DNA from: an uncultured Oscillospiraceae bacterium
Lineage (GTDB): Bacteria > Bacillota > Clostridia > Christensenellales > Aristaeellaceae
Direction: 5' to 3'
Length of the DNA: 58,070 nucleotides
NCBI GenBank assembly: GCA_964553125.1
Contig: CAZKJW010000001.1
Coordinates: 31,316-89,385, forward strand
Positions 525 through 32,387 of this stretch are shown here, piece after piece. How positions within the stretch are numbered: the stretch's first letter is position 1; every line of letters starts with the position of its first letter. The notes under the pieces were generated by a model, which did not search any database, was not told the DNA's origin, and was given only the letters and a program-made list of their open reading frames with translations. Made by a program: the position numbers and the translations under genes.

Positions 525-654
525 TTATCCGTTATGGCAAATCATTTTAATACTATTGTATGAAAGAGCGCGATCTTTTCTCAAGGGTATGCTTTGAATA
601 AAGCTCCGTATCAAGCGAAGTTTTATTCAGAGTATAGAAGGCGACTGCGTTCTC

Positions 655-681
655 CGCGAAAGAAACAGGCACTATTATGAA
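655..681 (+). promoter_or_regulatory. Phage-specific promoter-like motif, copy 1/9 (CGCGAAA-N3-WCA-N7-TTATGAA)
   Basis: CGCGAAAGAAACAGGCACTATTATGAA, 32 nt upstream of the ATG at 713. Confidence 0.5.
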
Positions 682-712
682 AACCTGATGATATTTCAAA
701 GGAGATGGAACA

Positions 713-1087: not shown

Positions 1088-1507
1088 GTGGGTGCAGCGA
1101 TTCGTCCTGAAATCTCTGTGAAAAACCGTTATTGGCTTCCTAAGCATCGTTATTACGAGCTGTATCATTTCTGCTTGCAATACCCGGAATGGAATAAGAA
1201 CTATCTTTCGCTTGATGGATATTCTGCAAAATCCGGAAGCGTGGTTGAGCAACAGTGTTCATATGAAACGGTAGACCCAACCGTAGTTTATGCAGAAGCA
1301 CGGCTATATTATCGTGAACGGATAGAGATGATCGAGAATGCGGCAAAGGAGGCCGCGGCAGATCTATATTTACCGATGCTTCGGGCAGTAACCGAAGGGA
1401 TTTCTTACGAGCATCTGAACGCTCAGAGCAGAATACCGTGTTGCAAAGACGTATGGTATACGATCTACAGGCGATTCTTTTGGCTTCTTGACAAGGCGCG
1501 TAAATAA
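1088..1507 (+). CDS. Putative phage transcription regulator (sigma-70 region-4-like / RinA-ArpU-like HTH); tentative
   Basis: GTG at 1088 lies 6 nt after a GGAGGT SD (the track starts at 1037). RYYELYHFCLQYPEWNK near the N-terminus. C-terminal HTH-like TEGISYEHLNAQSRIPCCKDVWYTIYRRFFWLLDKAR. The family call rests on memory of similar phage proteins. Confidence 0.35.
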   Translation: MGAAIRPEISVKNRYWLPKHRYYELYHFCLQYPEWNKNYLSLDGYSAKSGSVVEQQCSYETVDPTVVYAEARLYYRERIEMIENAAKEAAADLYLPMLRAVTEGISYEHLNAQSRIPCCKDVWYTIYRRFFWLLDKARK

Positions 1508-1523
1508 CATCGCTCCTTATGAA
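1497..1523 (+). promoter_or_regulatory. Phage-specific promoter-like motif, copy 2/9
   Basis: CGCGTAAATAACATCGCTCCTTATGAA. It overlaps the stop of the upstream gene, and AAAGGAG follows directly. Confidence 0.45.
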
Positions 1524-1536
1524 AGGAGCTGGTAAA

Positions 1537-2061: not shown

Positions 2062-2064
2062 AGG

Positions 2065-2091
2065 CGCGAAACTAACATCGGCTATTATGGA
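2065..2091 (+). promoter_or_regulatory. Phage-specific promoter-like motif, copy 3/9
   Basis: CGCGAAACTAACATCGGCTATTATGGA. Confidence 0.45.
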
Positions 2092-2123
2092 GAAAACCAT
2101 AAAAACTGAAAGGAGAACAGAGG

Positions 2124-2553: not shown

Positions 2554-2554
2554 T

Positions 2555-2581
2555 CGCGGAAAACACATGGGCTATTATGAA
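2555..2581 (+). promoter_or_regulatory. Phage-specific promoter-like motif, copy 4/9
   Basis: CGCGGAAAACACATGGGCTATTATGAA, 2 nt after the terminator T-run. Confidence 0.5.
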
Positions 2582-2609
2582 AAACCAAACACGAAAGGAC
2601 GGGTTTAAC

Positions 2610-3296: not shown

Positions 3297-3298
3297 AG

Positions 3299-3325
3299 CG
3301 CGAAAAATTCAACGGTCTTTATGAA
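3299..3325 (+). promoter_or_regulatory. Phage-specific promoter-like motif, copy 5/9
   Basis: CGCGAAAAATTCAACGGTCTTTATGAA, followed directly by AGGAG. Confidence 0.5.
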
Positions 3326-3338
3326 AGGAGTGGAGACA

Positions 3339-3605: not shown

Positions 3606-3634
3606 GTCCACACAAGGGCTCTTGCTTTTTTCTT

Positions 3635-3661
3635 CGCGAAATTTACAATCCGTATTATGAA
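3635..3661 (+). promoter_or_regulatory. Phage-specific promoter-like motif, copy 6/9
   Basis: CGCGAAATTTACAATCCGTATTATGAA. Confidence 0.5.
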
Positions 3662-3695
3662 ACGACGGAATCTAAATTTGAGGAGGAATAGATAA

Positions 3696-3980: not shown

Positions 3981-4403
3981 ATGAAAAGTTTTCTGGAAAC
4001 CGTGATCGGGGGCGCAATCGGCATGATCGCGCTCTATGTGGTGGGCAAGGTTGCCTATCAGGCCGGCAAGGAAGTAGCAAAGGCGGAATGCGAATATGAG
4101 GCGCTTCGCAAGGATGTCAATAAGGATGGTTCTGGCACAACCGTCGCTCATGGGGTAAACCAGGACGGCGAGGAAGTGAGCGTCGTTTGGGAACGGACGG
4201 ACGCTGATTCCAAGCAAACCCCCGGTTCGTGTTCCAAGCGTTCTGGCAAGCTGTCCATGGCGCTAAATGCGATGAAGCTCTTCAGGCGCAAGGATTCTGT
4301 GATTGGGGATTTGGTGAAACACCCCGAGGCCCACAAGATCGAGGCATTTGTGGAAGGGAATGATTTGCACATCAACGTATCGAAACGACCAGCATTCGCG
4401 TAA
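3981..4403 (+). CDS. Membrane-anchored protein (N-terminal TM, 140 aa)
   Basis: AAAGGAGAA SD. Product MKSFLETVIGGAIGMIALYVVGKVAY... Confidence 0.65.
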   Translation: MKSFLETVIGGAIGMIALYVVGKVAYQAGKEVAKAECEYEALRKDVNKDGSGTTVAHGVNQDGEEVSVVWERTDADSKQTPGSCSKRSGKLSMALNAMKLFRRKDSVIGDLVKHPEAHKIEAFVEGNDLHINVSKRPAFA

Positions 4404-4450
4404 ATTGCAAGTTCTTCTATGGAAAAGTACCTATTTAGGAGGACGAAAAC

Positions 4451-5507: not shown

Positions 5508-5509
5508 GC

Positions 5510-5536
5510 CGCGAAAAAATCAGCCGGTATTATGAA
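5510..5536 (+). promoter_or_regulatory. Phage-specific promoter-like motif, copy 7/9
   Basis: CGCGAAAAAATCAGCCGGTATTATGAA, followed by AGGAGG. Confidence 0.5.
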
Positions 5537-5550
5537 AGGAGGCGAATGCG

Positions 5551-6852: not shown

Positions 6853-6894
6853 AGCGTAGGCTGGCTGGTGCTGTAACTCGGAAAATCGCACGAC

Positions 6895-6921
6895 CGCGAA
6901 AAATACAAGCGGCTTTATGAA
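6895..6921 (+). promoter_or_regulatory. Phage-specific promoter-like motif, copy 8/9
   Basis: CGCGAAAAATACAAGCGGCTTTATGAA. Confidence 0.5.
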
Positions 6922-6956
6922 GGGATAACCCCCGAATTTGAAAGGAGAAATGAGCA

Positions 6957-15479: not shown

Positions 15480-15504
15480 TTGATATTTCAGGAGGAAGAA
15501 AATC

Positions 15505-16327: not shown

Positions 16328-16334
16328 TATCTTC

Positions 16335-17561: not shown

Positions 17562-17573
17562 AAGGAGAAAAAG

Positions 17574-17852: not shown

Positions 17853-17865
17853 GGAGGCAACGAAG

Positions 17866-18543: not shown

Positions 18544-18566
18544 TATTTGGGGAGGAACGGAGAAAT

Positions 18567-19103
18567 ATGGGCGATATCGAATTTAACTACGATGGAAGCA
18601 ACACGATTGGAATTGTGACGAACCGGACAGAGATGCTGGATGGATTTCATTACTATGGGTCATGCGTCGACCCCTTTTGCCAAGGCGGCGGGGGCGGTCT
18701 GCCGCAGATTTATGGGAGAAGCTATTGGATGCCCAAATGCATTAAACGACGCGGAACGGCGACTATCGTGGAGTGGAAAGACGGAACACAGACAAAAATT
18801 GTCCGCCCCGCGGAGGAGGCGGACGGAGGAATTTACACCGCTTTCTGCATTGCGCTGGGAAAGAAGCTCTTCGGCAATAATTCGGCGTTGAAGCGTGCTG
18901 TTCACAAGGCGGACGAAAGCGTTTTGCTCAAAGCGGAGCAGGAGCGAAAAGAAAAACGCACGCGCGAGCATAACGCTCGAATGCGCCGTCAGCTCAAACG
19001 AGCCGTGAAACGCATTGAAAAGGCGGCGCGCCGACAGCTGAACCGCGAAATTATCGGACAGCAGACCGTTGAGAGAATCGCAGCGGAAGCTGATGAGGCT
19101 TGA
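18567..19103 (+). CDS. Hypothetical protein (178 aa), basic coiled-coil C-terminus
   Basis: The ATG at 18567 follows GGAGGAACGGAG. Confidence 0.55.
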   Translation: MGDIEFNYDGSNTIGIVTNRTEMLDGFHYYGSCVDPFCQGGGGGLPQIYGRSYWMPKCIKRRGTATIVEWKDGTQTKIVRPAEEADGGIYTAFCIALGKKLFGNNSALKRAVHKADESVLLKAEQERKEKRTREHNARMRRQLKRAVKRIEKAARRQLNREIIGQQTVERIAAEADEA

Positions 19104-19128
19104 ACGCAGCGGGAAAAGGCAGTATAAT
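19100..19128 (+). promoter_or_regulatory. Sigma-A-type promoter of the brnTA cassette
   Basis: TTGAAC-17 nt-TATAAT. Confidence 0.6.
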
Positions 19129-19154
19129 AGAAATTGCAAAAGGAGATGACGGGC

Positions 19155-19433
19155 ATGAGGTTTGAATGGGACGAGGAGAAAAACGCGATTAACAAGAAGA
19201 AGCACGGCATTTCTTTTGAAACGGCGGCGTATGTGTTCAGAGATGAAAACTACATTGAAATGTATGACTTTGAGCATAGTACGGAAGAAGACAGATATAT
19301 TGCGATTGGGCGTGTGGGCGAGGTCCTCTTTGTGGTGTTCACGGAGCGGAAAGAAAACATTCGCCTCATCTCGGCCAGACTGGCGACAGACGCAGAAAGG
19401 AGACTGTACTATGACCAAAACATTCACTATTAA
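19155..19433 (+). CDS. brnT: BrnT-family toxin (DUF497, RelE-like ribonuclease fold)
   Basis: MRFEWDEEKNAINKKKHGISFETAAYVF.D....MYD.EHS..EDRYIAIG......LFVVFTER....RLISAR is the BrnT pattern. Confidence 0.8.
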   Translation: MRFEWDEEKNAINKKKHGISFETAAYVFRDENYIEMYDFEHSTEEDRYIAIGRVGEVLFVVFTERKENIRLISARLATDAERRLYYDQNIHY

Positions 19434-19590
19434 CCCGGGGCAGATGCCCGGCGAAGAACAGCTGCGCGAAGTGGCAGAGGCGAAAAAGCGTCCCATTACC
19501 TTTGACGAGGATTCTCCGCAAATGTCTCCTGCAATGGAAAAAGCGTTTCGCTGCGCGGTAATCCAGCGGAACCGCCGCAAAGCGGAATAG
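19411..19590 (+). CDS. brnA: BrnA-like antitoxin (short, DUF4415-like)
   Basis: Overlaps brnT by 23 nt. KKRPITFDEDSPQMSPAMEKAF resembles the BrnA/DUF4415 region. No clear RHH domain at only 59 aa. Confidence 0.5.
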   Translation: MTKTFTINPGQMPGEEQLREVAEAKKRPITFDEDSPQMSPAMEKAFRCAVIQRNRRKAE

Positions 19591-19617
19591 CGGCAGAAAA
19601 CTGCATACACAAAGAGC

Positions 19618-19654
19618 AAGACGTTCAGCGCGGTGTTGAACGTCTTTTCTTTTA
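19618..19654 (+). terminator. Rho-independent terminator
   Basis: AAGACGTTCA-gcgcggtgt-TGAACGTCTT plus TTCTTTTA. Confidence 0.75.
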
Positions 19655-19691
19655 TAGCCGACCAAGCGAGAGGAGGAAGCCAACGAAGCAC

Positions 19692-21587
19692 ATGAACGAT
19701 GAACTTTTTGGCAGAAAAATAAAAAAGATATTTGACGACATCACAGCGGCAGCGGACTGCAACCTGAAGCGGGACAACGCCAACATCAACGGCGACACCG
19801 CCATGGGCGCGATGCTGCAATACGGCGCCAACAGCGCCAAGGAATACTATCTGGACACCATGGTGCGCCCGGAAATTGCCGCACTGCACAGAAACGGGGA
19901 TATTCACATTCACGATCTGGATTTTTACGGCTGGACAACCACCTGCACGCAGATTGAGCTGCGAAAGCTATTCAAAGGCGGCTTTAACACCGGTCATGGA
20001 TATTTGCGCGAACCCAAATCCATTGGCAGCTATGCGGCGCTGGCAGCGATCGCCATTCAGTCAAACCAGAACGACCAGCACGGCGGACAGAGTATTGTGG
20101 ATTTTGATTATGCCATGGCGGACGGAGTGCGGCTGACGTATAACCGATACCTGACTGAGGCATTCGAGCTGCAGGCAAATCTGGGCGGGAAGACGGATTC
20201 CCACTGGCGCGAAGAATATGCGCTGGAAAAAACCACCCGCGACACCTATCAGGCGATGGAGGGACTCATTCACAACCTGAACACCATGCACAGCCGCGCT
20301 GGCGCGCAGGTGCCGTTCTCATCCTTGAACTATGGAACGTGTTCTTCGTGGGAAGGCAGACTGGCCATCGAGCAGTTACTTCTGGCAACGGAAGCGGGTC
20401 TGGGCAATGGCGAAACGCCCATCTTCCCCATTCAGATATTCCGCGTAAAGGAGGGCGTGAACTACAATCCTGGCGACCCGAACTATGACCTGTTCAAGCT
20501 GGCGATGCGGGTAAGCGCCAAGCGTCTGTTCCCGAACTTCTCCTTCATCGACGCGCCGTTCAACCTGCAATACTACAAGCCGAACCATCCGGAAACAGAG
20601 GTGGCGTACATGGGCTGCAGAACGCGGGTGATGGGGAACGTATGCGGCGAAGAAGTCGCGCCCGGACGGGGAAATCTGAGCTTCACCTCGATCAACCTGC
20701 CAAGACTGGCCATCAAAGCCGGAGGGCATGAGCGATTCTTCTGGATGAATCTCAATGATATTCTTGTCTCTGTCCGTACTCAGCTTCTGGATCGTTACAA
20801 GGTGCAATGCGCCCGTACCGCGCGGAACTTTCCCTTCCTGATGGGCGAAGGCGTGTGGATGGATTCGGAAAAGCTGGGTTCAAATGACACGCTGGAAGAA
20901 GTGCTCAAGCACGGTACGCTCTCCATTGGTTTCATCGGTTTAGCGGAGACGCTGAAGGTGCTATGCGGCAAGCACCATGGCGAGAGCAGCGAGGCGCAGG
21001 AGCTGGGGCTTAGGATTGTGAGGCGCGTTCGCGACTTCTGCGACGCTGCAAGCGAAGAAACCGGACTGAACTTTACCTGTCTGGCGACGCCTGCTGAAAG
21101 TCTTTCCGGGAGGTTCGTCAAGCTGGACCGGGAGAAGTACGGCGTGATCGAAGGCGTAACCGACCGGGAATACTACACCAACAGCTTCCACATTCCCGTG
21201 TACTATCCCATTTCAGCGGCAAGGAAGATCGAGCTGGAAGCGCCGTACCACGCGCTGGCCAATGCCGGGCACATTACTTACGTGGAGATGGACGGCGATC
21301 CGAGCCGAAATCTGGAAGCGTTTGAAACCATCATCCGCCATATGAAGGAATGCGGCATCGGGTACGGCAGCATCAACCACCCGGTGGATCGCGATCCCGT
21401 GTGCGGGTACAACGGCATCATCAACGACGTATGCCCCGGTTGCGGACGCATGGAAACGCCGGACGCCCCCTTTGAACGCATTCGGCGCATCACTGGATAT
21501 CTGGTTGGAACTTTGGACAAATGGAATGACGCCAAGCGCGCTGAAGAAAAAGAAAGGGTGAAGCATGATGTGCGAGAGAATGCCTGA
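19692..21587 (+). CDS. nrdD: Anaerobic ribonucleoside-triphosphate reductase (class III)
   Basis: C-terminal glycyl-radical motif RIRRITGYLVG, preceded by a CPGCG zinc site. 631 aa, with nrdG downstream. Confidence 0.9.
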   Translation: MNDELFGRKIKKIFDDITAAADCNLKRDNANINGDTAMGAMLQYGANSAKEYYLDTMVRPEIAALHRNGDIHIHDLDFYGWTTTCTQIELRKLFKGGFNTGHGYLREPKSIGSYAALAAIAIQSNQNDQHGGQSIVDFDYAMADGVRLTYNRYLTEAFELQANLGGKTDSHWREEYALEKTTRDTYQAMEGLIHNLNTMHSRAGAQVPFSSLNYGTCSSWEGRLAIEQLLLATEAGLGNGETPIFPIQIFRVKEGVNYNPGDPNYDLFKLAMRVSAKRLFPNFSFIDAPFNLQYYKPNHPETEVAYMGCRTRVMGNVCGEEVAPGRGNLSFTSINLPRLAIKAGGHERFFWMNLNDILVSVRTQLLDRYKVQCARTARNFPFLMGEGVWMDSEKLGSNDTLEEVLKHGTLSIGFIGLAETLKVLCGKHHGESSEAQELGLRIVRRVRDFCDAASEETGLNFTCLATPAESLSGRFVKLDREKYGVIEGVTDREYYTNSFHIPVYYPISAARKIELEAPYHALANAGHITYVEMDGDPSRNLEAFETIIRHMKECGIGYGSINHPVDRDPVCGYNGIINDVCPGCGRMETPDAPFERIRRITGYLVGTLDKWNDAKRAEEKERVKHDVRENA

Positions 21588-21729
21588 TATGGAGATTCGG
21601 CATGAGCCGCAGGGATATTACAGCCTTTACGTGGACGGGATTTTTGAAGGAAACTATGACAACCAGATGGAAGCCGTTCTGGCGGCGGACGCATTGATGC
21701 ATCCGCGGGAGGCAGCGGAAACGGCGTGA
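21565..21729 (+). CDS. Possible 54-aa protein
   Basis: ATG after AAGGGTGA, overlapping the nrdD end. Product MMCERMPDMEIRHEPQGYYSLYVDG... Not in the ORF track. Confidence 0.3.
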   Translation: MMCERMPDMEIRHEPQGYYSLYVDGIFEGNYDNQMEAVLAADALMHPREAAETA

Positions 21730-21890
21730 ACGGTTGGAAGAGAATCTCGCAGGGGCTGGTTTTCCTGCTGACGGCCATTGCCGCCACGGTTGCAGGTCTT
21801 TTGATCGCTGGAAAACCGGCATGGTTTGCCATCATCATTTACTGGGTGGTGCTGACGCTCAAAAACCTTTGCGACTGGCTGGGGCGATGA
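21726..21890 (+). CDS. Possible 54-aa two-TM protein
   Basis: GTGA start/stop overlap. Product VNGWKRISQGLVFLLTAIAATVAGLLIAGKPAWFAIIIYWVVLTL... Preferred over the track ORF 21734-21937. Confidence 0.4.
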   Translation: MNGWKRISQGLVFLLTAIAATVAGLLIAGKPAWFAIIIYWVVLTLKNLCDWLGR

Positions 21891-21895
21891 CGGAA

Positions 21896-21935
21896 GAAGA
21901 GCTTGCGGAGAAAAAACGCAGGCTCTCTTCTTTTT
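21896..21935 (+). terminator. Terminator-like hairpin
   Basis: GAAGAGCTTGCG-gagaaaaaa-CGCAGGCTCTCTTC plus TTTTT (imperfect). Confidence 0.55.
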
Positions 21936-21952
21936 AGAAAGGGGAAAGAACG

Positions 21953-22156
21953 ATGATAGCTAAAAAATGCGATCGGTGCGGGGCTTATTACGACCCGTAT
22001 GGAAAACAGTCGGACGAAACACAGGCGAATGGTTGTGTGCTGCTCAATGTTGACAAGTGTCAGCCGCACTTTTGCAGTGATGTGTTCGATTTATGCCCTT
22101 CGTGCATGGCTGGTTTATATTCATTTATACAAAATAAAGAGGAGGGAGCAAAATGA
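21953..22156 (+). CDS. Zinc-ribbon protein (67 aa)
   Basis: CDRCG ... CPSC cysteine pairs. Confidence 0.55.
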   Translation: MIAKKCDRCGAYYDPYGKQSDETQANGCVLLNVDKCQPHFCSDVFDLCPSCMAGLYSFIQNKEEGAK

Positions 22157-22653
22157 AGACACGGATTTACGGGCTGGTACAGAATTCTTATGTGGACGGG
22201 CCGGGAATTCGCATGGCGGTGTTTTTTCAGGGCTGTCTGCTGCATTGCCCGGGGTGTCACAATCGTGGATCATGGGATCCTAACGCCGGCATAGAGATGG
22301 ACACGGAGGAAATCAAGCGGCGGATGGCAATTGATCCTCTGCTGGCGGGTATCACGCTTTCGGGCGGCGAACCGTTTTTGCAGCCGGAAGCGGCGCTGGA
22401 TCTGGCAAAATTCGCGCATTCGCTGGGGCTGAACGTCTGGTGTTACACAGGCTACCGCATGGGCGATATTCTCTACAAAAGCGGCGATACGGCCCAGATT
22501 GCCCTGCTGAGGGAAACGGACGTGCTGGTGGACGGGCCGTTCAAGCAAAACGAGGCCTCGTTGGAATTGAAATGGCATGGAAGCAGGAACCAGCGGATTA
22601 TCGATGTGAAAAAAACTTTGGAGAAAGGAATGACGATTTGCTATGACAATTAA
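22153..22653 (+). CDS. nrdG: Anaerobic RNR activating enzyme (radical SAM)
   Basis: YVDGPGIRMAVFFQGCLLHCPGCHN (CxxxCxxC cluster) and GGEPFLQ. Confidence 0.9.
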   Translation: MKTRIYGLVQNSYVDGPGIRMAVFFQGCLLHCPGCHNRGSWDPNAGIEMDTEEIKRRMAIDPLLAGITLSGGEPFLQPEAALDLAKFAHSLGLNVWCYTGYRMGDILYKSGDTAQIALLRETDVLVDGPFKQNEASLELKWHGSRNQRIIDVKKTLEKGMTICYDN

Positions 22654-22984
22654 CGAATATCAGAAAGAGACGCTGAGGACGGAGCCGGCCGTGGCAAAAG
22701 GAACGCGGCTCAAGCGGCTCATCAATGGGTTGATGGGACTCAACGGCGAGGCGGGCGAGGCAATTGATATTCTCAAGAAGCATCTGTTTCAGGGACACGA
22801 ACTTGAAAGCGAGCATCTTGCGAAGGAGCTGGGCGACGTAGCATGGTATCTGGCGGTGACGGCGGATGCGCTGGGCTATACGCTGGAGGAGATTCTGGAG
22901 ATGAATGTGGAAAAGCTGCGCGCGAGGTATCCGGACGGGTTTGATTCGGAGAGGAGCGCGCATAGAAAAAAGGATGATATTTAA
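22643..22984 (+). CDS. mazG: MazG-like nucleotide pyrophosphohydrolase
   Basis: INEYQ...GL.GEAGE...KK......E....ELGDV.WYL, the all-alpha NTP-PPase pattern. Confidence 0.85.
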   Translation: MTINEYQKETLRTEPAVAKGTRLKRLINGLMGLNGEAGEAIDILKKHLFQGHELESEHLAKELGDVAWYLAVTADALGYTLEEILEMNVEKLRARYPDGFDSERSAHRKKDDI

Positions 22985-22985
22985 T

Positions 22986-23295
22986 GCCCGCTTTTGCCGG
23001 GAAAAACGTCCACTGCCCACTTTTGTTTTTGAAAAAGCGGGCAAAACCGGGTGAGGTCGCGAAAAATGGCCAGAAAAAGTGGGCAAATGGCCACTTTTAC
23101 AAAACAAAAGTGGCCACGAAAAGCCCGAAAAATGGGCCGAAAATGGCATAAAAACGGCGTTTTTGGCCCGTTTTAAGGCGAAAATTGACGATTTTGAGGG
23201 TTCGTGGCCATTTGCCCACTTTTATTTCTATTTAATTGCGAAAAAGAAATAAATAGATATATAGTAATAGACGAAAAAAAGTGGGTTTTTGGCCA
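22986..23295. repeat. Iteron array plus AT-rich tract (candidate replication origin or protein-loading site)
   Basis: AAAGTGG(G/C)C at 23076-84, 23107-15 and 23278-86 (+), and at 23015-23, 23089-97 and 23214-22 (-). AAAATGG(G/C)C variants at 23063, 23129 and 23141. 10-bp inverted repeats GCCCGCTTTT/AAAAGCGGGC (22986/23033) and GGCCACTTTT/AAAAGTGGCC (23089/23106). AT-rich tract at 23221-23277. Confidence 0.6.
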
Positions 23296-23392
23296 CAAGT
23301 CATTTTGCAGGCCGCTTTTCGAGGCCGGCTGCGTGAAAAAGGAGGGACGGCATAAGACCAATCGTTGCTGCGAAGAATCATCCTGATTCGCC

Positions 23393-23421
23393 TTGTTCAT
23401 TTTTTCGTTCAAGGGTATAAT
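23393..23421 (+). promoter_or_regulatory. Sigma-A-type promoter
   Basis: TTGTTC-17 nt-TATAAT, 24 nt upstream of the ATG at 23445. Confidence 0.55.
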
Positions 23422-23444
23422 AGAATATGTGCGAGGTGAGAAGG

Positions 23445-23756
23445 ATGAAAGAGAACTCCTATTCCAAAATGTATCGAGTGGACGCTCGGGACGAATGGAT
23501 GAACGCGGCGTATGACGAAGAAGGAAACGCCGTCGTATGCGAGCGATGTTCTTGCGAAATGAAGTGGAACCCCGTGATGCAGGTATGGTATTGCCCGGAG
23601 TGCGAAGCCGAAATGGATCGCCCAACCTACTTTCTGCACATCGGCGCCCAGCCGCCCGGAAGCGAGTGCCTGACCAACTGCTGGGAGAACTACCCTTTCT
23701 GCAAGAAATATTGCGAGCGTTACGCCATTGACCCCAAGGATCCGATGCTTACTTGA
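23445..23756 (+). CDS. Cys-rich zinc-ribbon protein (103 aa)
   Basis: CERCSC...CPEC pairs plus further cysteines. GAGGTGAG SD. Confidence 0.55.
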   Translation: MKENSYSKMYRVDARDEWMNAAYDEEGNAVVCERCSCEMKWNPVMQVWYCPECEAEMDRPTYFLHIGAQPPGSECLTNCWENYPFCKKYCERYAIDPKDPMLT

Positions 23757-23774
23757 TATTCGCCAGAGAAGACG

Positions 23775-23804
23775 TTGACAGCTTTCGAAGGCGCATGATA
23801 TAAT
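23775..23804 (+). promoter_or_regulatory. Strong sigma-A promoter driving an RNA antisense to the toxin gene
   Basis: TTGACA-18 nt-(TGa)TATAAT, a consensus -35 and an extended -10. No SD or ORF follows. Confidence 0.65.
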
Positions 23805-23897
23805 AACGGCAGGAAGGGATGACGCTTTTGGCAGGGCTTCTCCCCTCTCGGAGTGGAAAAGCCGCTTTCCAGTTAGCGCTGGATGGCGGCTGTTGCT

Positions 23898-23984
23898 TTA
23901 TTTATCCTTCTTGTAGCTGAGAACAGCAAACACAAGCATGATAATCATGATAACAATGGACAACGTTTCGTAGTCGGTCATCAT
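23898..23984 (-). CDS. Hol-Tox-like small hydrophobic toxin (type I TA candidate), 28 aa
   Basis: Product MMTDYETLSIVIMIIMLVFAVLSYKKDK, with SD GGGAGGTG 4-7 nt upstream. Resembles the ~30-aa 'putative holin-like toxin' peptides of Firmicutes (..YEALSLM.....I.........KKK). Confidence 0.55.
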   Translation of the reverse strand: MMTDYETLSIVIMIIMLVFAVLSYKKDK

Positions 23985-24066
23985 GATCACCTCCCTTTTG
24001 TAGGGAGAGGTGAAAAGCCAAGCGCCATCTGTTTCCTTCCTGCCGGAAGCACAAAGCTTCGCGAAT

Positions 24067-24096
24067 ATTATACCATGCCATAAATAGACCCGCCAA
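24067..24096 (-). promoter_or_regulatory. Promoter of the toxin mRNA
   Basis: On the - strand: TTGGCG-18 nt-(TGg)TATAAT. The ~75-nt 5' UTR contains CACCTCTCCCT-acaa-AAGGGAGGTG (23988-24012), which pairs with the SD. Confidence 0.5.
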
Positions 24097-24123
24097 ATGA
24101 TATTCTGGCGGCGTTTGTGTTTC

Positions 24124-24150
24124 CGCGAAAAATACATGCCCTTTTATGAA
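24124..24150 (+). promoter_or_regulatory. Phage-specific promoter-like motif, copy 9/9 (orphan)
   Basis: CGCGAAAAATACATGCCCTTTTATGAA. The only copy outside the left arm. It runs straight into a terminator hairpin. Confidence 0.4.
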
Positions 24151-24190
24151 GAGAGAAGACAATACGCCTTCTCTCTTTTCATTTTGTTTG
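24149..24190 (+). terminator. Rho-independent terminator
   Basis: AAGAGAGAAG-acaatacgc-CTTCTCTCTT plus TTCATTTTGTTTG. Confidence 0.65.
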
Positions 24191-24226
24191 CGTTGCCGGA
24201 TGATGAAAGAATTTTGAATAGGCGAT

Positions 24227-24412
24227 TCATTCTTTTAGCTGCGGAGCTTGATATTTCGCCGCGGGAGATGCGTTCTTGAATTCAAGACGGAAGTCCCGCT
24301 CCGGAATGTCGTTCAGTTCCGTTTTGTAGCCGGCAACCAAGCCGCACCTCGGACATTTCCGAGAGGCAAAATTGATATTGCACCGATAGCAGGTATATAG
24401 ATATCGATTCAT
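24227..24412 (-). CDS. Zinc-ribbon protein (61 aa)
   Basis: Product MNRYLYTCYRCNINFASRKCPRCG..., with a GAAAGGAAAC SD. One of only two convincing - strand genes. Confidence 0.5.
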   Translation of the reverse strand: MNRYLYTCYRCNINFASRKCPRCGLVAGYKTELNDIPERDFRLEFKNASPAAKYQAPQLKE

Positions 24413-24467
24413 GTGTTTCCTTTCTCGACAATCAGTTCCGAAGAGACTGCGATTCTCTTTGGCGCAT

Positions 24468-24496
24468 CTTTTACCATGAAATCGGTGCAATGTCAA
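24468..24496 (-). promoter_or_regulatory. Sigma-A-type promoter for the - strand zinc-ribbon gene
   Basis: On the - strand: TTGACA-17 nt-(TGg)TAAAAG. Confidence 0.55.
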
Positions 24497-24535
24497 GCGG
24501 CATTCTGTGAAAACAAAATCAAGGAGGTCAGCGTC

Positions 24536-24868
24536 ATGAAACGAGGCTCAAAGGAAGCGAAGTTTCAGAGCGCTCTGATTCGCGAACTGAAAAAGCGGTT
24601 CCCCGGCTGCATCGTGACGAAGCTGGACTCCGGCCACATACAGGGCATACCGGATTTGCTTCTTCTCTGGGGAAGACGCTGGGCTGCGCTGGAATGCAAG
24701 CGAAACAAAAGCGCGCATCATCAGCCCAATCAGGAGTATTACGTAAGCCGGATGAACGAGATGTCCTTTGCGAGATTTATATTCCCGGAGAACAAGGAGG
24801 AAGTCCTGAATGAACTGGAACAGGCATTCGGAGGTGGAGGGAACGCACGCGCTCCTCTCTCCAAGTAA
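24536..24868 (+). CDS. VRR-NUC domain nuclease
   Basis: AAGGAGG SD. E..FQ..LI..L....... then GIPDLLLLWGRRWAALECK (the G-x-PD ... E-x-K motif). Confidence 0.75.
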   Translation: MKRGSKEAKFQSALIRELKKRFPGCIVTKLDSGHIQGIPDLLLLWGRRWAALECKRNKSAHHQPNQEYYVSRMNEMSFARFIFPENKEEVLNELEQAFGGGGNARAPLSK

Positions 24869-25373
24869 TTATCACTGGATTGGCTACGACGAAACCAAAC
24901 TGGCGGAGACCTACAAGCGCAAACAGGCGATTGCAAAGGGCACAGAGCTTCACGAGTTTGCCGCCCGGTGCATTCGGCTGGGGCAGAAGCTGCCCAAGAG
25001 CCAGAAAACGCTCAACATGCATGTCAACGACGCCATCGGCTACAAGATGACGGCCGAGGTTCCTTTATATTATTCCCCCAATTGCTACGGGACGGCAGAC
25101 GCTATTTCCTTTCGGAACGGCATGCTGCGCATTCATGATTTGAAAACAGGCGAAACCCCGGCGCACATGGAGCAGCTGATGATCTATGCGGCGCTTTTTT
25201 GTTTGGAATACCGCGTGAAGCCCGCCGACATCAAGATGGAGCTTCGCCTGTATCAGAACGACCAGATCATTTATCATAACCCCGAGGTGGATGAGATTGT
25301 GCCAGTGATGGACAAGATTGTCAGCTTCGACAAAATCATCAACCGCATCAGAGAAGAGGAGGGCGAAGCATGA
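24810..25373 (+). CDS. PD-(D/E)XK (RecB/Cas4-like, DUF2800-like) nuclease
   Basis: THALLSPSNYHW, GTELHEF, GTADAISF..GMLRIHDLKTGE, QLMIYAALF. No Cys cluster. Confidence 0.65.
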   Translation: MNWNRHSEVEGTHALLSPSNYHWIGYDETKLAETYKRKQAIAKGTELHEFAARCIRLGQKLPKSQKTLNMHVNDAIGYKMTAEVPLYYSPNCYGTADAISFRNGMLRIHDLKTGETPAHMEQLMIYAALFCLEYRVKPADIKMELRLYQNDQIIYHNPEVDEIVPVMDKIVSFDKIINRIREEEGEA

Positions 25374-28141
25374 ACCGGGTCGGTGACGAAATTTTGATGC
25401 ACTACGGCGTGAGCGCCAAGGACGGCGCACCGGGGCGCGGTTCAGGCCGGTACCCTCTGGGAAGCGGCGAAGACCCAAACCAGCATCGCGGGGATTTTGC
25501 CAGCCGCGTACAGGAGCTGCGCAAGGCCGGCATGAGCGAAAAAGATATTGTGACGGCGCTGGGACTGAAAAGCACCTCTGAGCTGCGCGCAAGATATTCC
25601 ACGGCGGTGAACGAGCAGCGGACGCAGAAGATTGCCCGCGCCCGGCAGATGCTGGACGAGGGACGGAGCCGGGCGGAGATTGCCCGCGAAATGGGCATTA
25701 ACGAATCGACCCTGCGATCTCTTTTGAACGAGCGAAGCGCAGAGCGTACGCGGGCAGCACAGATCACCGCCGATTTTCTTCGGGCGCAAATCGAAGAAAA
25801 GGGAATGATCGACGTGGGCACCGGGGTGGAGCTGGAGCTGGGCGTGAGCAAGGAAAAGCTGAACCAGGCGCTGGCCATGCTGGAAGAGGAAGGCTATGTG
25901 CTCTATGGCGGCGGCGTGCCGCAGGTGACAAACCCCGGCAAGCAGACGAACATTAAGGTCATCTGCCCGCCCGGCACAGAACACAGGGAAATTTATGACT
26001 TTGAAAATGTCCACACGATTACGGATTACAAGATGCGGGTGGATGAGAACGGCGAGGAGCATTTTGAAAAGGGGTTTGAATACCCCGCTTCGCTGGACTC
26101 CAGCCGCTTGCAGATTCGCTATCGCGATGACGTAACGCCCGATGGCCACGCCGCCATTGAAAAGGACGGAACCATTGAGATTCGCCGCGGCTGCGCAGAC
26201 CTTGACCTTGGCGAAAGCCATTACGCGCAGGTGCGGATTCTGGTGGACGGGGACAAGTACCTCAAAGGCATGGCGTTCTACTCGGACGACCTGCCGGACG
26301 GCATCGATGTGGCGTTCAACACCAACAAATCGCCCGGACAGGAAGCGCTGAAGAAAGCCAAGACGGACGACCCGAACAATCCCTTCGGCGCGCTGATCAA
26401 GGAAGAGGGCGGACAGTACCACTACACCGATGAAAATGGAGAGCGCAAGCTGGGCCTCATCAACAAGACCCGCGCTGAAGGCGACTGGGGCGAATGGGCG
26501 GACGCGCTTCCTTCGCAGTTTCTTTCCAAGCAGAGCCAGCAGCTGATTAACAAGCAGCTTGGTTTGGCGATTGCGGACAAGCAGATGGAGTTTGACGAGA
26601 TTTGCGCGCTGACCAACCCCACGGTGAAGAAGCAGCTACTGGAGACCTTTGCCAACGACTGCGATTCGGCGGCGGTGCATTTGCAGGCGGCGGCCCTGCC
26701 GCGGCAGAAGTATCAGGTGATCCTGCCTATCGCTTCTCTCAAGGACAACGAGGTATACGCGCCCAACTATCAGGACGGCGAAACGGTGGCGCTGATCCGC
26801 TATCCTCACGGCGGCACGTTTGAGATTCCGATCCTGACGGTGAACAACAAGCAGGCGGATGGACGGCGCATTCTGGGGACGAACCCTGCAGATGCCATTG
26901 GCATCAATGCAGAGGTGGCGGCCCGCCTGTCTGGCGCCGACTTTGACGGCGACACCGTGATGGTCATTCCCTGCAACTCCTCCTCAAGCAAGGTGAAGAT
27001 CACTTCGACCCGTGCGCTGGAAGGCTTGAAGGACTTTGACAACAAGATGGAGTATGGCTCGACGGTGAAGGTAGACGCGGACGGTACGGAACACTACTAC
27101 CACAACGGCCATGAATTCAAGCGCATGACCAAGAGCCAGACCCAGATGGAGATGGGCAAGATCTCCAATCTGATTACCGACATGACGCTCAAGGGCGCGA
27201 CCACGGAAGAGCTGACCAAAGCCGTGCGGCACAGCATGGTTGTCATCGATGCGGAGAAGCACAAGCTGGACTGGAAGCAGAGCGAGATTGACAACGACAT
27301 CCCGGCGCTGAAAAGGAAGTACCAGATGCGCGTCGACGAGGACGGCAGCGTTCACACCGGGGCATCCACACTGATCTCGCGCGCCAAATCCCCCGTCGCG
27401 GTGCTCAAGCGCAAGGGCAGCCCAAAGATCGACCCCGACACCGGCGAGCTGGTCTACAAGGAGGTCGTGGAGGAATACACCGACAAGCACGGAAAGACCC
27501 GCGTGCGCACACAGGACTCCACGCAGATGGCGGAGACGCGGGATGCGCGGACGCTTTCCAGCGGGACTCCGCAGGAAGAAGCTTATGCTGCTTATGCCAA
27601 CAAGATGAAGGCTTTGGCGAACGAAGCGCGCAAGGAGATCATCTCCACAGGACGCATCCAGTACAGCGCGTCCGCCAGAGCCGCCTATGCGGAGGAGGTC
27701 GATTATCTGACCGCCCAACTGAATGTGGCGCTGAAGAACGCCCCGCGCGAGAGACAGGCGCAGCTTGCTGCTAACAGCGAGGTGAAGGCGATGAAAAAAG
27801 CGAACCCTGGAATGACCCAAAAAGAGGTCAAGAAACAGGCGCAGCTGGCGCTGTCGAGGGCGCGGACAAGGTACGGCGCGAAGCGCAATCCCGTCAACAT
27901 CACTGCCCGCGGATGGGAAGCGATTCAGGCAGGGGCAATCAGCGAGAACGTACTGAGCCAGATTCTCCGCTTTGCAGACACCGATCAGGTGAGAGCCTAC
28001 GCGACACCGCGCACAACCACGGCATTGTCCACAGGAAAACAGGCTCGCATTAAAGCGATGCGCGCTTCTGGCTACACAAACAGCGAGATTGCGCAGGCGC
28101 TTGGCATCTCGGCCTCAACCGTGTCGAAATACAGCAATTGA
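25370..28141 (+). CDS. YonO/QDE-1-like single-subunit two-barrel RNA polymerase with N- and C-terminal HTH motifs
   Basis: ETVALIRYPHGG...LSGADFDGDTVMVIP, then ~65 aa later MGKISNLITD (the DxDGD ... GxISN catalytic signature). HTH-like GRSRAEIAREMGINESTLRSLL and GYTNSEIAQALGISASTVSKY. N-terminal MHYGV...GSGRYPLGSGEDP. Confidence 0.6.
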   Translation: MNRVGDEILMHYGVSAKDGAPGRGSGRYPLGSGEDPNQHRGDFASRVQELRKAGMSEKDIVTALGLKSTSELRARYSTAVNEQRTQKIARARQMLDEGRSRAEIAREMGINESTLRSLLNERSAERTRAAQITADFLRAQIEEKGMIDVGTGVELELGVSKEKLNQALAMLEEEGYVLYGGGVPQVTNPGKQTNIKVICPPGTEHREIYDFENVHTITDYKMRVDENGEEHFEKGFEYPASLDSSRLQIRYRDDVTPDGHAAIEKDGTIEIRRGCADLDLGESHYAQVRILVDGDKYLKGMAFYSDDLPDGIDVAFNTNKSPGQEALKKAKTDDPNNPFGALIKEEGGQYHYTDENGERKLGLINKTRAEGDWGEWADALPSQFLSKQSQQLINKQLGLAIADKQMEFDEICALTNPTVKKQLLETFANDCDSAAVHLQAAALPRQKYQVILPIASLKDNEVYAPNYQDGETVALIRYPHGGTFEIPILTVNNKQADGRRILGTNPADAIGINAEVAARLSGADFDGDTVMVIPCNSSSSKVKITSTRALEGLKDFDNKMEYGSTVKVDADGTEHYYHNGHEFKRMTKSQTQMEMGKISNLITDMTLKGATTEELTKAVRHSMVVIDAEKHKLDWKQSEIDNDIPALKRKYQMRVDEDGSVHTGASTLISRAKSPVAVLKRKGSPKIDPDTGELVYKEVVEEYTDKHGKTRVRTQDSTQMAETRDARTLSSGTPQEEAYAAYANKMKALANEARKEIISTGRIQYSASARAAYAEEVDYLTAQLNVALKNAPRERQAQLAANSEVKAMKKANPGMTQKEVKKQAQLALSRARTRYGAKRNPVNITARGWEAIQAGAISENVLSQILRFADTDQVRAYATPRTTTALSTGKQARIKAMRASGYTNSEIAQALGISASTVSKYSN

Positions 28142-28158
28142 AAGGAGTGAACAGTTGT

Positions 28159-28410
28159 ATGACCAAAGGCTGCATGCTGACGACGTTTGACAATCCTTAC
28201 AATCCGTTCACTCAGTTTGAGAAGTGGTTTCTGTTTGACACGGAAAAAGGATACAACACTTGCGCGTACCTGGGGCGAATCGTCCGGACGAGCGACGAAT
28301 TCACCGAGGAAGAAAACGATTTGGCGAATGAGCGCGCAATTGACGAGATCATTAAGTATGATTTCAGAAACATTTACAGGAAAGTCTGCTCGAATGCGAA
28401 GAGAACATAA
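28159..28410 (+). CDS. Conserved phage protein of unknown function (83 aa)
   Basis: TTFDNPYNPFTQFEKWFLFD..KGYNTCAYLGR is a pattern I recall from many Firmicutes phages. Confidence 0.55.
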   Translation: MTKGCMLTTFDNPYNPFTQFEKWFLFDTEKGYNTCAYLGRIVRTSDEFTEEENDLANERAIDEIIKYDFRNIYRKVCSNAKRT

Positions 28411-31789: not shown

Positions 31790-31817
31790 ATACTTGCAGG
31801 AAAGGAGTGATGGACAT

Positions 31818-32387
31818 TTGAGCAATGAATTGACCCATCATGGTATCAAGGATCAAAAGTGGGGATTGCGCCGATTTCAAAACCCCGATGGCAGCTTAAC
31901 TCCGGCAGGACGCGAGCGGTACGGCGTGGGAAAAAAACGTGGGGTAGCAGGTGCAGAAGGAGAAAGCAAGAGTGGCGAAAGCGCTTCTTCTCAGAAAAGC
32001 GGCGTTAGCAAAACGCCTGGCAAATCGAGGCGAAGGACTGCCGCAATGAGTGATGATGAACTCCGTTCCCGCATTAACCGCCTGAATATGGAAGAACAGT
32101 ATTCAAATCTTGTGGCGCGGCAGAAGCAGCGAAATACTGGCGTTGTAAAAAGGCTGCTCGGTAATGCTGCTAAACAGCTTGCAGAACAGTCACTTAGCAG
32201 GCTTGTGTCCAAAGTCATGAGTAAGGCTTTTGATAAGAAAGACAGCTTCGACATCGGTGATTACAAGGATATGGACGTCTATAAGATGGACGCCGAAACG
32301 ATCAAGAAGGTCGCGGATTGGTATACCAAAGCGAGTATGATCGAGCGCCAGCGTTCTGTGATATCCTCCGACAAGAAAAGGGACTGA
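31818..32387 (+). CDS. Phage protein with an N-terminal HHGIK..KWGxRR motif (189 aa)
   Basis: TTG 10 nt after AAAGGAG. Product LSNELTHHGIKDQKWGLRRFQNPDGSLTPAGRERYG... Confidence 0.55.
   Translation: MSNELTHHGIKDQKWGLRRFQNPDGSLTPAGRERYGVGKKRGVAGAEGESKSGESASSQKSGVSKTPGKSRRRTAAMSDDELRSRINRLNMEEQYSNLVARQKQRNTGVVKRLLGNAAKQLAEQSLSRLVSKVMSKAFDKKDSFDIGDYKDMDVYKMDAETIKKVADWYTKASMIERQRSVISSDKKRD

Follow-up and report, generated by a model that had tools for sequence, protein, structure and literature searches.

A helix-turn-helix-flanked, predicted two-barrel RNA polymerase of a gut phage and a candidate promoter motif found in related phages of two bacterial phyla

Single-chain two-barrel RNA polymerases

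Cellular transcription universally relies on two-barrel RNA polymerases (RNAPs), and single-chain forms of these enzymes have been studied as models of their ancestor. The present analysis concerns a gene predicted to code for such a single-chain enzyme, in which the catalytic region is flanked by helix-turn-helix (HTH) domains, together with a motif of approximately 30 bp that is repeated ahead of early genes on the same DNA. Both are located in a stretch of 58,070 nucleotides from an uncultured Oscillospiraceae bacterium (GenBank assembly GCA_964553125.1, contig CAZKJW010000001.1, positions 31,316 to 89,385), referred to here as the window, which has the gene content of a phage.

The single-chain enzyme YonO of phage SPbeta is a processive DNA-dependent RNAP of the SPbeta late genes, with its promoter determinants and its need for helper factors remaining unsettled (Forrest et al., 2017; PMC5467207). 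The window polymerase shares with YonO the character of a single-chain phage polymerase of similar size (839 residues in YonO) with collinear RxPH, DxDGD and GxISNxIT elements, and some members of both families touch the Pfam family PF05183. Nonetheless, the N-terminal halves of the two proteins are unaligned and there is no detectable HTH in YonO, which moreover has one known start site serving one late operon, in contrast to the approximately ten motif copies found before early cassettes in the window. The best structural matches to the window polymerase are QDE-1 of Neurospora and RDR2 of plants, with PF05183 covering the catalytic loop region, although these enzymes are without HTH domains and act in RNA silencing. 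In phages, gp66 of phi14:2 (a crAss-like phage) and gp96 of the Thermus phage P23-45 are virion two-barrel RNAPs with promoters of their own, gp96 being fused to the tape measure protein. These two enzymes and the non-virion P23-45 gp64 are single-subunit two-barrel polymerases using short phage-specific promoter motifs before early or pre-early genes, as is proposed here for the window, but they have no detectable sequence similarity to the window polymerase and no fused HTH. A virion location has been shown for gp66 and gp96, whereas for the window polymerase it is hinted at by the label of a homolog. The T7/SP6-type and N4 virion RNAPs are likewise single-chain enzymes, with promoters of about 20-30 bp that include a TATA-like melting block; this is a functional analogy only, as they have a right-hand, Pol I-like fold unrelated to that of the window polymerase.

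The nearest relatives constitute the phrog_4291 group, which includes proteins of Lactococcus phage 1706, Faecalibacterium phage FP_oengus (AUV56548.1/YP_009797581) and an actinophage supercluster. They share with the window protein the HTH-core-HTH arrangement, an N-terminal peptide, the DxDGD loop and the synteny, the window protein representing a gut subclade with a 7-residue insertion and a W to L change in the N-terminal peptide. An earlier description of the FP_oengus protein, together with homologs from actinophages and Lactococcus, listed an HTH at either end, the DxDGD loop and a match to PF05183 by HHpred (95.7%, 286 columns), and suggested RNA polymerase activity (Koert et al., 2021; bioRxiv 10.1101/842583). 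The two-barrel polymerase idea is not new for this family, since the same prediction was made in that preprint, which is silent on promoters or repeats. The phage 1706 paper had also been cited in a section on YonO-like proteins of firmicute phages (Ruprich-Robert and Thuriaux, 2010; PMC2919709).

The polymerase gene and its family

The gene extends over 25370..28141 on the + strand, starts with ATG and codes for 923 amino acids followed by a stop codon, with a 4-nt overlap between its ATG and the stop codon of the exonuclease gene upstream. The open reading frame (ORF) and all of the residue strings quoted from it in a preliminary description of this DNA were recovered in an ORF and residue check. 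The features recognized within the gene are the following, where residue numbers are those of the protein and pLDDT is the predicted local distance difference test of the structural model.

25370..28141, + strand: gene of the HTH-flanked, predicted two-barrel RNA polymerase, phrog_4291 (ORF, PHROG match, Foldseek, homologs)
25394..25489, + strand: conserved N-terminal peptide, predicted to be disordered (pLDDT <40 for residues 1-40)
25622..25735, + strand: N-terminal HTH of sigma region 4 / HTH_23 / CENP-B type (Sigma70_r4_2 97-119, HTH_28 92-120, CENP-B_N 91-122)
25805..25969, + strand: winged-helix-like alpha/beta module, weak evidence (sub-threshold GntR and Crp HTH matches at 156-180, E ~2e-3)
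26087..26479, + strand: beta-rich region, presumed first (beta-like) barrel (model strands, invariant columns)
26708..26971, + strand: predicted second (beta-prime-like) catalytic barrel, with R477-x-P479-H480 and the loop D524-F-D526-G-D528 (invariance, start of the Pfam RdRP match, YonO register)
27131..27190, + strand: long helix past the catalytic barrel, with G596-x-I-S599-N600-L-I-T (model helix 588-607, invariance, YonO alignment)
28031..28135, + strand: C-terminal HTH of HTH_23 / HTH_7 / LuxR-GerE / sigma region 4 type (Pfam matches at 890-921)

Residues 5-921 match positions 8-904 of the 909 in the phrog_4291 profile (E = 0, 1211.6 bits), and by this match the window polymerase is a new addition to a known predicted family. 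Approximately 250 full-length homologs, at about 48% identity, occur in GenBank phages with hosts from Arthrobacter, Gordonia, Streptomyces, Rhodococcus, Microbacterium, Curtobacterium, Lactococcus and Faecalibacterium, and there are thousands of metagenomic relatives. An exhaustive search with a 477-residue core as query (E <= 1e-3) returned 1,264 clusters (50% identity). Among the 150 best of these, nearly all are 890-1,090 residues long with the core beginning near residue 210-300, which indicates that the extended architecture is the rule in the family. The family is a large one, with more than 1,200 clusters and some 250 cultured phages, and it is abundant in the human gut. The window polymerase itself falls in a gut-metagenome subclade of relatives that are 66-99% identical to it, while identity is 48-50% to the actinophage and FP_oengus proteins and 37% to the full-length homolog orf75 of phage 1706 (3e-179).

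The catalytic core

A single-subunit two-barrel polymerase of the QDE-1/YonO type had been proposed in the preliminary description on the basis of three elements, and this proposal is supported by structural comparison, by PF05183 and by the invariance of the elements themselves. VALIRYP corresponds to residues 473-479, the metal-loop string SGADFDGDTVMVIP to residues 521-534 and MGKISNLITD to residues 595-604, 67 residues past D528. Conservation was followed in two alignments which together cover two phyla, one of proteins from four host genera (A1) and the other of 63 metagenomic relatives (A2), and R477, P479, H480, D524, D526, G527, D528, G596, S599 and N600 are invariant in both. The distance from R-x-P to DxDGD is 47 residues, compared to 45 in QDE-1; the reference R-x-P residues are R962/P964 in QDE-1 and R446/P448 in Rpb1 (PMC2919709). 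The GxISN element falls within a long helix of the model (residues 588-607) that may be bridge-helix-like; this helix lies within the Pfam RdRP match and aligns to YonO G593-E-I-S-N-N-I-T.

An AlphaFold2 model of the full-length protein was built from 63 sequences, with a mean pLDDT of 76, a predicted template modelling score (pTM) of 0.58 and values mostly of 80-90 in the core. A Foldseek comparison of this model, which had been put forward earlier as a check, placed QDE-1 or RDR2 in each of the top eight PDB matches (E = 1.1e-8 to 1.1e-3, probability 1.0), with alignments of 555-981 columns at 10-13% identity. The QDE-1 chains were 5fsw_B (1.1e-8), 7y7t_B, 7y7p_A and 7y7r_A, and those of RDR2 were 7w82 (1.6e-7), 7eu1_M, 7roz and 7rqs. 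These were followed by approximately 30 chains of bacterial beta-prime, eukaryotic Rpb1/A190 and poxvirus (vaccinia) large RNAP subunits. Among the predicted viral structures of BFVD, the best matches were metagenomic phage proteins named as RNA-dependent RNA polymerases (RdRPs) and a crAss-like phage protein (E = 4e-3). In all seven family members tested, the match to PF05183 (RdRP) begins at profile position 425/426, that is, at the DxDGD loop, and the relatives P0092, P0101 and P0114 score 24.5-24.8 bits, over the curated cut-off of 23.8. Taken together, the structural matches, the PF05183 match at the loop and the invariant motifs support the name of two-barrel polymerase, and it is very probable that the window protein is a two-barrel (double-psi beta-barrel) RNAP.

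The first barrel is presumed to correspond to the beta-rich region at residues 240-370 of the model, where strands occur at 247-366 with a pLDDT of 80-90 in the full-length structure. This region lies within the Foldseek alignments to QDE-1 of 944-981 columns and includes the invariant runs S283-x-Y-A-Q-V-R289, K299-G-M-A and F316-N-T-N-K320. Six charged residues in it are invariant in A1 and A2 (D266, D277, R289, K299, D313 and K320); the beta-like barrel residues of QDE-1 are D709, R738 and K743, that is, one Asp and two basic residues. An equivalence of S283-H-Y-A-Q-V-R289 with S-S-A-G-Q-I-R of YonO was considered and dropped, since alignment of the N-terminal halves of the two families with hhalign leaves these stretches unaligned (E = 0.55).

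A number of results weigh against the two-barrel assignment or leave it incomplete for the first barrel. The same hhalign comparison of N-terminal halves is not significant, and of the eight residues listed as invariant in the superfamily (Ruprich-Robert and Thuriaux, 2010) five could be identified, the Asp, Lys and Arg of the first barrel not being assignable. When residues 225-450 were modelled alone the model was poor (pLDDT 56) and Foldseek on it returned noise, while the global template modelling scores (TM-scores) of the full model to QDE-1 are 0.25-0.31. The window core scores 15.9 bits against PF05183 (E = 0.005), under the cut-off of 23.8; by this measure the window polymerase is related to PF05183 and formally outside the Pfam family. 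Single-sequence and family-profile hidden Markov model (HMM) searches of PDB chains recovered HTH domains and no polymerase, and the link to solved polymerases consequently required structural comparison. A profile-profile alignment of the family to 25 YonO-family sequences places RxPH, DxDGD and GxISNxIT in register (RSPH, DNDGD and GEISNNIT in YonO), although it is statistically marginal (hhalign E = 0.045, probability 1.2%, 129 columns). Against the single YonO sequence the family gave E = 0.39, which is not significant, and a phmmer search with the core found its own family and no YonO among the top 150 matches. Finally, no biochemical or structural study of any phrog_4291-family member was found in a literature search.

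The nature of the template must also be considered, as homologs in the databases carry the names 'RNA-dependent RNA polymerase', 'helix-turn-helix DNA-binding domain protein', 'hypothetical protein', 'structural protein' and 'putative transcription factor D5' (inconsistently named records include NC_047916 gp55, NC_031224 gp94 and PP758912 gp92). The first of these is the name used by RefSeq and PHROGs, and most SEA-PHAGES records have 'HTH DNA-binding domain protein'. A genuine RdRP would copy phage or host transcripts into double-stranded or antisense RNA, for example in regulation or counter-defence, and would agree with the RefSeq and PHROG name, with eukaryotic RNAi RdRPs being the best structural and Pfam matches, and with QDE-1 being both an RdRP and a DNA-dependent RNAP. 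However, the name probably does no more than follow the title of the Pfam family, the characterised single-subunit two-barrel enzymes of phages (YonO, crAss gp66 and P23-45 gp64/gp96) are all DNA-dependent, and the presence of two HTH domains of the type that binds double-stranded DNA, as well as of a DNA motif whose occurrence co-varies with that of the gene, points to a DNA template. A true RdRP is on these grounds very improbable. DNA-templated RNA synthesis may be inferred by analogy with YonO, gp66 and gp64/gp96, and it is likely that the window protein is a phage DNA-dependent transcriptase. The current database names are misleading, the RdRP name being probably wrong and 'HTH DNA-binding protein' under-describing the protein.

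HTH domains at both ends of the protein

According to the preliminary description, the protein differs from YonO in having HTH motifs at both termini, and Pfam confirms this at both ends. The two strings noted then, GRSRAEIAREMGINESTLRSLL and GYTNSEIAQALGISASTVSKY, occupy residues 98-119 and 901-921, and Pfam HTH families match at approximately 85-122 and 890-921, with HTH_23 (5e-11), HTH_7 of the resolvase/Hin type (2e-10) and Sigma70_r4_2 (6e-9) each matching two stretches, and with further matches to HTH_28, GerE and CENP-B_N. The 25 best matches in a Pfam scan of the whole protein were all to HTH families. In the model, the N-terminal HTH is situated in a helical region (residues 43-144), and the C-terminal one also matches the HTH DNA-binding protein phrog_3855 over residues 886-922. 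The alpha/beta module at 25805..25969 is possibly winged-helix-like, a helix-strand pattern being present in the model. The homologs in FP_oengus, Mudcat and phage 1706 carry the same HTH domains according to Pfam, whereas YonO gave no Pfam match at E <= 10 and no HTH Pfam domain occurs in 120 listed YonO relatives.

Two good HTH domains, together with the fact that most GenBank records describe an HTH DNA-binding protein, would also be compatible with a protein acting mainly as a sequence-specific DNA-binding regulator, its core being an inactive or repurposed relic and the repeated motif a stoperator-like operator. Repeated, strand-specific operators do exist in other phages, as in the stoperators of Cluster A mycobacteriophages. 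Such a relic is difficult to reconcile with the invariance of R-x-P, of the three Asp residues of DxDGD and of GxISN over two phyla and 63 metagenomic relatives. Furthermore, the 477-residue core is the best-conserved portion of the protein (48-63% identity, compared to 37-50% overall), which indicates selection on enzymatic function, and the motif occurs after terminators, at a promoter-like distance from Shine-Dalgarno (SD) sequences and start codons. A mainly regulatory role is accordingly a marginal explanation, to which we give very little weight.

A promoter-like motif in the window

It had been claimed earlier that a motif with nine copies is an obvious candidate target for the polymerase. 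The motif exists, having been found through the repeat families D2, D5 and D6 and by weight matrix, and all nine copies (at 654, 1496, 2064, 2554, 3298, 3634, 5509, 6894 and 24123) are on the + strand. The window consensus is CGCGaAAaa-N-aCA-N6-TTATGAAa, or in block form CGCGAAAaa-N-ACA-N6-TTATGAAA. The individual sites, supported by repeats and weight matrix unless stated otherwise, are listed below.

654..683, + strand: motif copy 1, early cassette (SD and ATG at 699/713)
1496..1525, + strand: motif copy 2
2064..2093, + strand: motif copy 3
2554..2583, + strand: motif copy 4, directly 3' of the terminator at 2517-2545
3298..3327, + strand: motif copy 5
3634..3663, + strand: motif copy 6, directly 3' of the terminator at 3604-3621
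4396..4425, + strand: weaker tenth match, TCGCGTAAATTGCAAGTTCTTCTATGGAAA (weight-matrix score 19.8)
5509..5538, + strand: motif copy 7
6894..6923, + strand: motif copy 8
24123..24152, + strand: copy ahead of the endonuclease-exonuclease-polymerase operon, CCGCGAAAAATACATGCCCTTTTATGAAGA (weight-matrix score 39.8, the best in the window)

An SD sequence and a start codon follow within 45-65 nt at eight of the nine sites. Eight early cassettes at 0.65-7.2 kb are each made up of the motif, an SD sequence, a small ORF and a terminator, and the ninth copy is located about 290 nt 5' of the operon that includes the polymerase gene. The cassettes are bracketed by strong intrinsic terminators of the + strand, of which there are 29 terminator-like sites against 9.1 +/- 2.9 expected, a threefold excess, while matches to sigma-70-type promoters are at chance (14 against 9.9 +/- 2.3 expected). 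A screen of 20 early and replication proteins found no sigma factor or other regulator.

Conservation of the motif across polymerase-bearing phages

A weight matrix was built on the window sites and later extended with the sites of FP_oengus and of the Arthrobacter phage Mudcat; with this matrix the shuffled expectation is at most 0.45 sites per genome strand. The sites found in each phage, for the coding and the opposite strand, were as follows.

Window: 10 on +, 0 on - (weight matrix)
Faecalibacterium phage FP_oengus: 14 on +, 0 on - (weight matrix)
Arthrobacter phage Mudcat: 7 on +, 0 on - (weight matrix)
Rhodococcus phage ReqiPepy6: 15 on +, 0 on - (weight matrix)
Gordonia phage Petito: 10 on +, 0 on - (weight matrix)
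Streptomyces phage Scap1: 2 on +, 0 on - (weight matrix)
Lactococcus phage 1706, own variant CACAtgTTTTACA-N5-CTATAGTAGAAAG: 12 on +, 0 on - (counted by pattern)

Seven phages of Firmicutes and Actinobacteria thus hold approximately 70 sites on the coding strand and none on the opposite one, and a control locus of 50 kb from SPbeta had no match. In the window, FP_oengus, Mudcat, ReqiPepy6 and Scap1, one of the copies immediately precedes the endonuclease-exonuclease-polymerase operon on its 5' side. The shared architecture of about 30 bp consists of C-[G/A]-C-[G/A], N2-3, an A/T-rich block of 4-5 nt, ACA, N5 and (C)TAT[A/T][A/G]T(G), with 5-6 nt between ACA and TAT and approximately 12 nt between CGCG and TAT. 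Within the literature searched, this cross-phylum conservation of a promoter-like motif alongside the polymerase appears to be undescribed. The sequence ...ACACTATAGTAGAAAG of phage 1706 resembles that of the SP6 promoter, ...GACACTATAGAAG; as the folds of the two polymerases are unrelated, any such resemblance would be convergent or coincidental.

The polymerase is the sole protein with a DNA-binding domain found to be common to the motif-bearing phages, and it has been reported as a signature protein conserved across the whole phage group (Koert et al., 2021; bioRxiv 10.1101/842583). In view of this, the most economical explanation would be that the motif is the promoter of the polymerase and is read by the fused HTH domains. 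Recognition by the HTH domains may be inferred from their presence alongside the motif, and that the motif is the polymerase's promoter is, in our estimation, slightly better than an even prospect. The claim of a candidate promoter target has gained strong comparative support, given the same motif on the same strand at equivalent positions in seven phages from two phyla. Two points count against it: the link between motif and polymerase is correlative, and the motif as it occurs in actinophages includes a perfect TATAAT, so that host sigma-A could use it.

The principal competing explanation is that the protein is a non-virion polymerase similar to YonO, made in mid-infection and acting, from some other promoter, on the late (structural and lysis) genes, and that the nine-copy motif is an early promoter of the host RNAP, possibly in combination with a phage factor. 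This would accord with YonO, the one relative of this branch characterised from a bacterial virus, which transcribes late genes and is not known in virions, and with the position of the polymerase gene as the last large gene of the replication block, 5' of the packaging and structural genes in a circularised genome. The phage is in addition temperate, as judged by its integrase, and induction needs host-driven transcription; the TATAAT of the actinophage versions is in its favour as well. Against it, the fixed CGCG/CGCA and ACA blocks are unfit for the -35/-10 spacing of sigma-70 promoters, and the FP_oengus version of the motif, CTTTATGG, is without a usable -10. Together with the chance level of sigma-70-like matches in the early region, these features led to rejection of a sigma-70 reading of the motif. 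It would also be hard for host promoters alone to account for an element shared by the phages of Clostridia, of Lactococcus and of four genera of Actinobacteria with none of about 70 sites on the opposite strand. Moreover, no match to the motif was found in any structural-gene region, and neither the motif nor another repeated element was found ahead of the structural genes. A late-gene polymerase is for these reasons unlikely, although it is the strongest of the competing explanations, and the label given to its homolog in phage 1706, considered below, is a further point against it.

The N-terminal peptide and the question of virion delivery

The N-terminal region of the polymerase includes a peptide predicted to be disordered, in which MHYGV corresponds to residues 10-14 and GSGRYPLGSGEDP to residues 24-36. 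The family consensus, [LA]-x-HYG-[TI]-x-R-x-SGRYPWGSG...QH, is kept in the homologs of FP_oengus, Mudcat, 1706, Scap1, ReqiPepy6 and Petito, the 7-residue insertion and the W to L change being peculiarities of the window version. It had been suggested in the preliminary description that this N-terminus resembles two proteins of the packaging module, from which packaging of the polymerase in virions was surmised. The two small proteins do exist: they flank the terminase gene (31794-32387 and 34139-34621, + strand) and have 'HHGIK..WG' N-termini, HHGIKDQKWGLRR and HHGIKGMKWGVRR. The Pfam family DUF7211, which is characterised by an N-terminal HxGxKGMKWG motif, matches the protein at 34139-34621 (1.4e-9) and, below threshold, that at 31794-32387, and the position of both suggests a virion or packaging accessory role.

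The likeness of the polymerase to these proteins did not hold up statistically and has been discarded, which detracts from the case for virion delivery. It is confined to H-[HY]-G-[IV], and DUF7211 gave E = 0.073 and 12.9 bits with the polymerase N-terminus, against a cut-off of 27. No DUF7211 match was found in the polymerase N-termini of FP_oengus, Mudcat and 1706, the two DUF7211-motif proteins scored E = 0.67 and 6.5 with an HMM made from the polymerase N-termini, neither BLAST nor strict regular expressions recovered anything for this likeness in the window, and a PHROGs search with the N-terminal peptide recovered phrog_4291 only.

A different indication comes from the GenBank record of phage 1706, where orf75 has the label 'structural protein' although it is far from the morphogenesis module; the label is repeated in the ReqiPepy6 record. 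If the motif is the promoter of the polymerase, and given that it precedes both the operon of the polymerase itself and the first genes to be expressed, the enzyme would probably have to be on hand when infection begins, which implies transport in the virion. Other facts weigh against delivery in the virion. The association with virions derives from one GenBank label, that of 1706 orf75, and both the window phage and FP_oengus encode integrases. Prophage induction would proceed without an injected polymerase, which implies that at least the polymerase operon is readable by the host RNAP. Virion delivery of the window polymerase is a possibility that falls somewhat short of even.

Proposed mode of action

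The whole of the evidence is best explained, with moderate confidence, by a single-chain two-barrel DNA-dependent transcriptase that would read the motif through its HTH domains, would serve the early cassettes and its own operon, and would be delivered in the virion. In this scheme, the protein would be the single-polypeptide DNA-dependent RNAP of a temperate gut siphophage of the Faecalibacterium type. Catalysis would be carried out by the magnesium loop D524-x-D526-G-D528 with R477/P479 of the beta-prime-like barrel, the active site being completed by the N-terminal beta-like barrel and a bridge-like helix (G596-x-I-S-N). The HTH domains of sigma-region-4/Hin type at both ends would provide promoter recognition without a separate sigma factor, directed to the element of about 30 bp that is present 45-65 nt before the start codons of eight early cassettes and once before the polymerase operon. 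The polymerase would then drive both the early cassettes and its own operon and, if packaged in virions and ejected together with the DNA, would be present when infection starts.

A stronger version, put forward tentatively and with less than even confidence, is that of a self-sufficient, virion-ejected transcription machine made of one polypeptide, with HTH domains as promoter readers and with promoters of approximately 30 bp kept in phages of Clostridia, Lactococcus and Actinobacteria. If true, this would be the first two-barrel RNAP with covalently built-in promoter specificity, and it would offer a minimal model of how an ancestral single-subunit RNAP could have found promoters before sigma, TBP and TFB. 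The cross-phylum candidate promoter makes promoter recognition by a minimal two-barrel RNAP directly testable, which is of importance given that the matter is unresolved for YonO, and several of the hosts (Arthrobacter, Gordonia, Streptomyces and Lactococcus) are readily cultured. Should the system be orthogonal to host transcription, it could also provide a new expression tool for Gram-positive bacteria.

Operon partners and window layout

Three genes accompany the polymerase gene, the two upstream ones having matches to phrog_93/phrog_3953.

24413..24868, + strand: VRR-Nuc-type endonuclease, upstream partner
24810..25373, + strand: Cas4/PD-(D/E)XK exonuclease, upstream partner
28138..28410, + strand: small partner ORF, phrog_4303 (6e-37), directly 3' of the polymerase gene

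The order of VRR-Nuc endonuclease, Cas4-like exonuclease, polymerase and small ORF is kept in FP_oengus, Mudcat, Scap1, ReqiPepy6 and Petito; in phage 1706 the endonuclease and exonuclease homologs (orf68 and orf69) are five ORFs apart from the polymerase (orf75). The phrog_4303 ORF, of about 80-90 residues, directly follows the polymerase in all seven phages, with orthologs 37-52% identical in the six others and a conserved pattern of MLTTxDNPYNPFTQ...W...D...GYNT. No Pfam family matched the ORF at 28138-28410, which can be regarded as a candidate partner or cofactor of the polymerase. The polymerase gene comes second to last at the right end of the genome in Lactococcus phage 1706 and the cultured actinophages, and the ReqiPepy6 record has a 3' cos overhang approximately 290 nt past the small ORF that follows it.

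Almost all genes of the window are on the + strand. Some 9 kb of small genes, to which no function was assigned, are followed by a replication block with a primase-polymerase (11304-15479), a single-strand annealing protein, a helicase and anaerobic NrdD/NrdG, and then by the VRR-Nuc endonuclease, the Cas4-like exonuclease, the polymerase and the small ORF. Beyond these are an HNH endonuclease, terminase, portal, a protease-capsid fusion, tail genes and a tyrosine integrase. Faecalibacterium phage FP_oengus is laid out in the same way and likewise carries an integrase. The integrase of the window is at its right end (56696-57886, + strand; phrog_1, 1e-46), and at about 480-512 on the - strand the reverse complement resembles the 3' third of a tRNA, GGTCGCCAGTTCGAATCTGGCTATCAGCTCCA. 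ARAGORN and Rfam call no tRNA at this position, the tRNA and Rfam scans of the window being empty. It is possible that the window follows a prophage (att-to-int) order and has an att core of the tRNA type.

Other elements of the window

A second strand-specific motif, TTGATATT, has 16 copies, all on the + strand, against 2.0 +/- 1.2 expected. Fifteen of the 16 are attributed to 9321-24379, further copies being named at 689 and 48106, and they cluster in the replication block just 5' of the polymerase gene. Some copies separate an SD sequence from its start codon, and others are situated inside genes, in several frames; TGATATT occurs 27 times on the + strand of the window and once on the - strand. 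A strand bias of this second motif is also seen in FP_oengus (35 on + and 2 on -, over positions 1-30000) and more weakly in Petito (8 on +, 0 on -), and was not seen in Mudcat, Scap1, ReqiPepy6 and 1706. Possible roles for the motif are those of a Chi-like site, of a processing signal or of a middle promoter.

The early region contains three copies of an element of approximately 100 nt (865-980, 3873-3980 and 9481-9596, + strand), and each copy precedes an SD sequence and a start codon. It includes a conserved hairpin, CCCG..CCGGTTGAAGACCGG..CGGG, with two compensatory base-pair changes, gave no match in Rfam and may be a cis-regulatory leader RNA. The early region also holds three phrog_2152 paralogs (4725-5507, 6064-6852 and 8228-9139, + strand), and FP_oengus has three ORFs annotated as DUF6353 in the region matching them.

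In the tail region, a degenerate in-frame repeat with a periodicity of 21/42 nt occurs at 50129-50839 (+ strand), inside the ORF 49925-52120, which codes for a 731-residue protein. It comprises about ten copies of a unit rich in Ala, Lys and Asn and is probably a coiled-coil or fibre repeat. The anaerobic ribonucleotide reductase of the replication block consists of an NrdD-like protein (19692-21587) and an NrdG-like activase (22153-22653), both on the + strand, and its presence fits a strictly anaerobic gut host.

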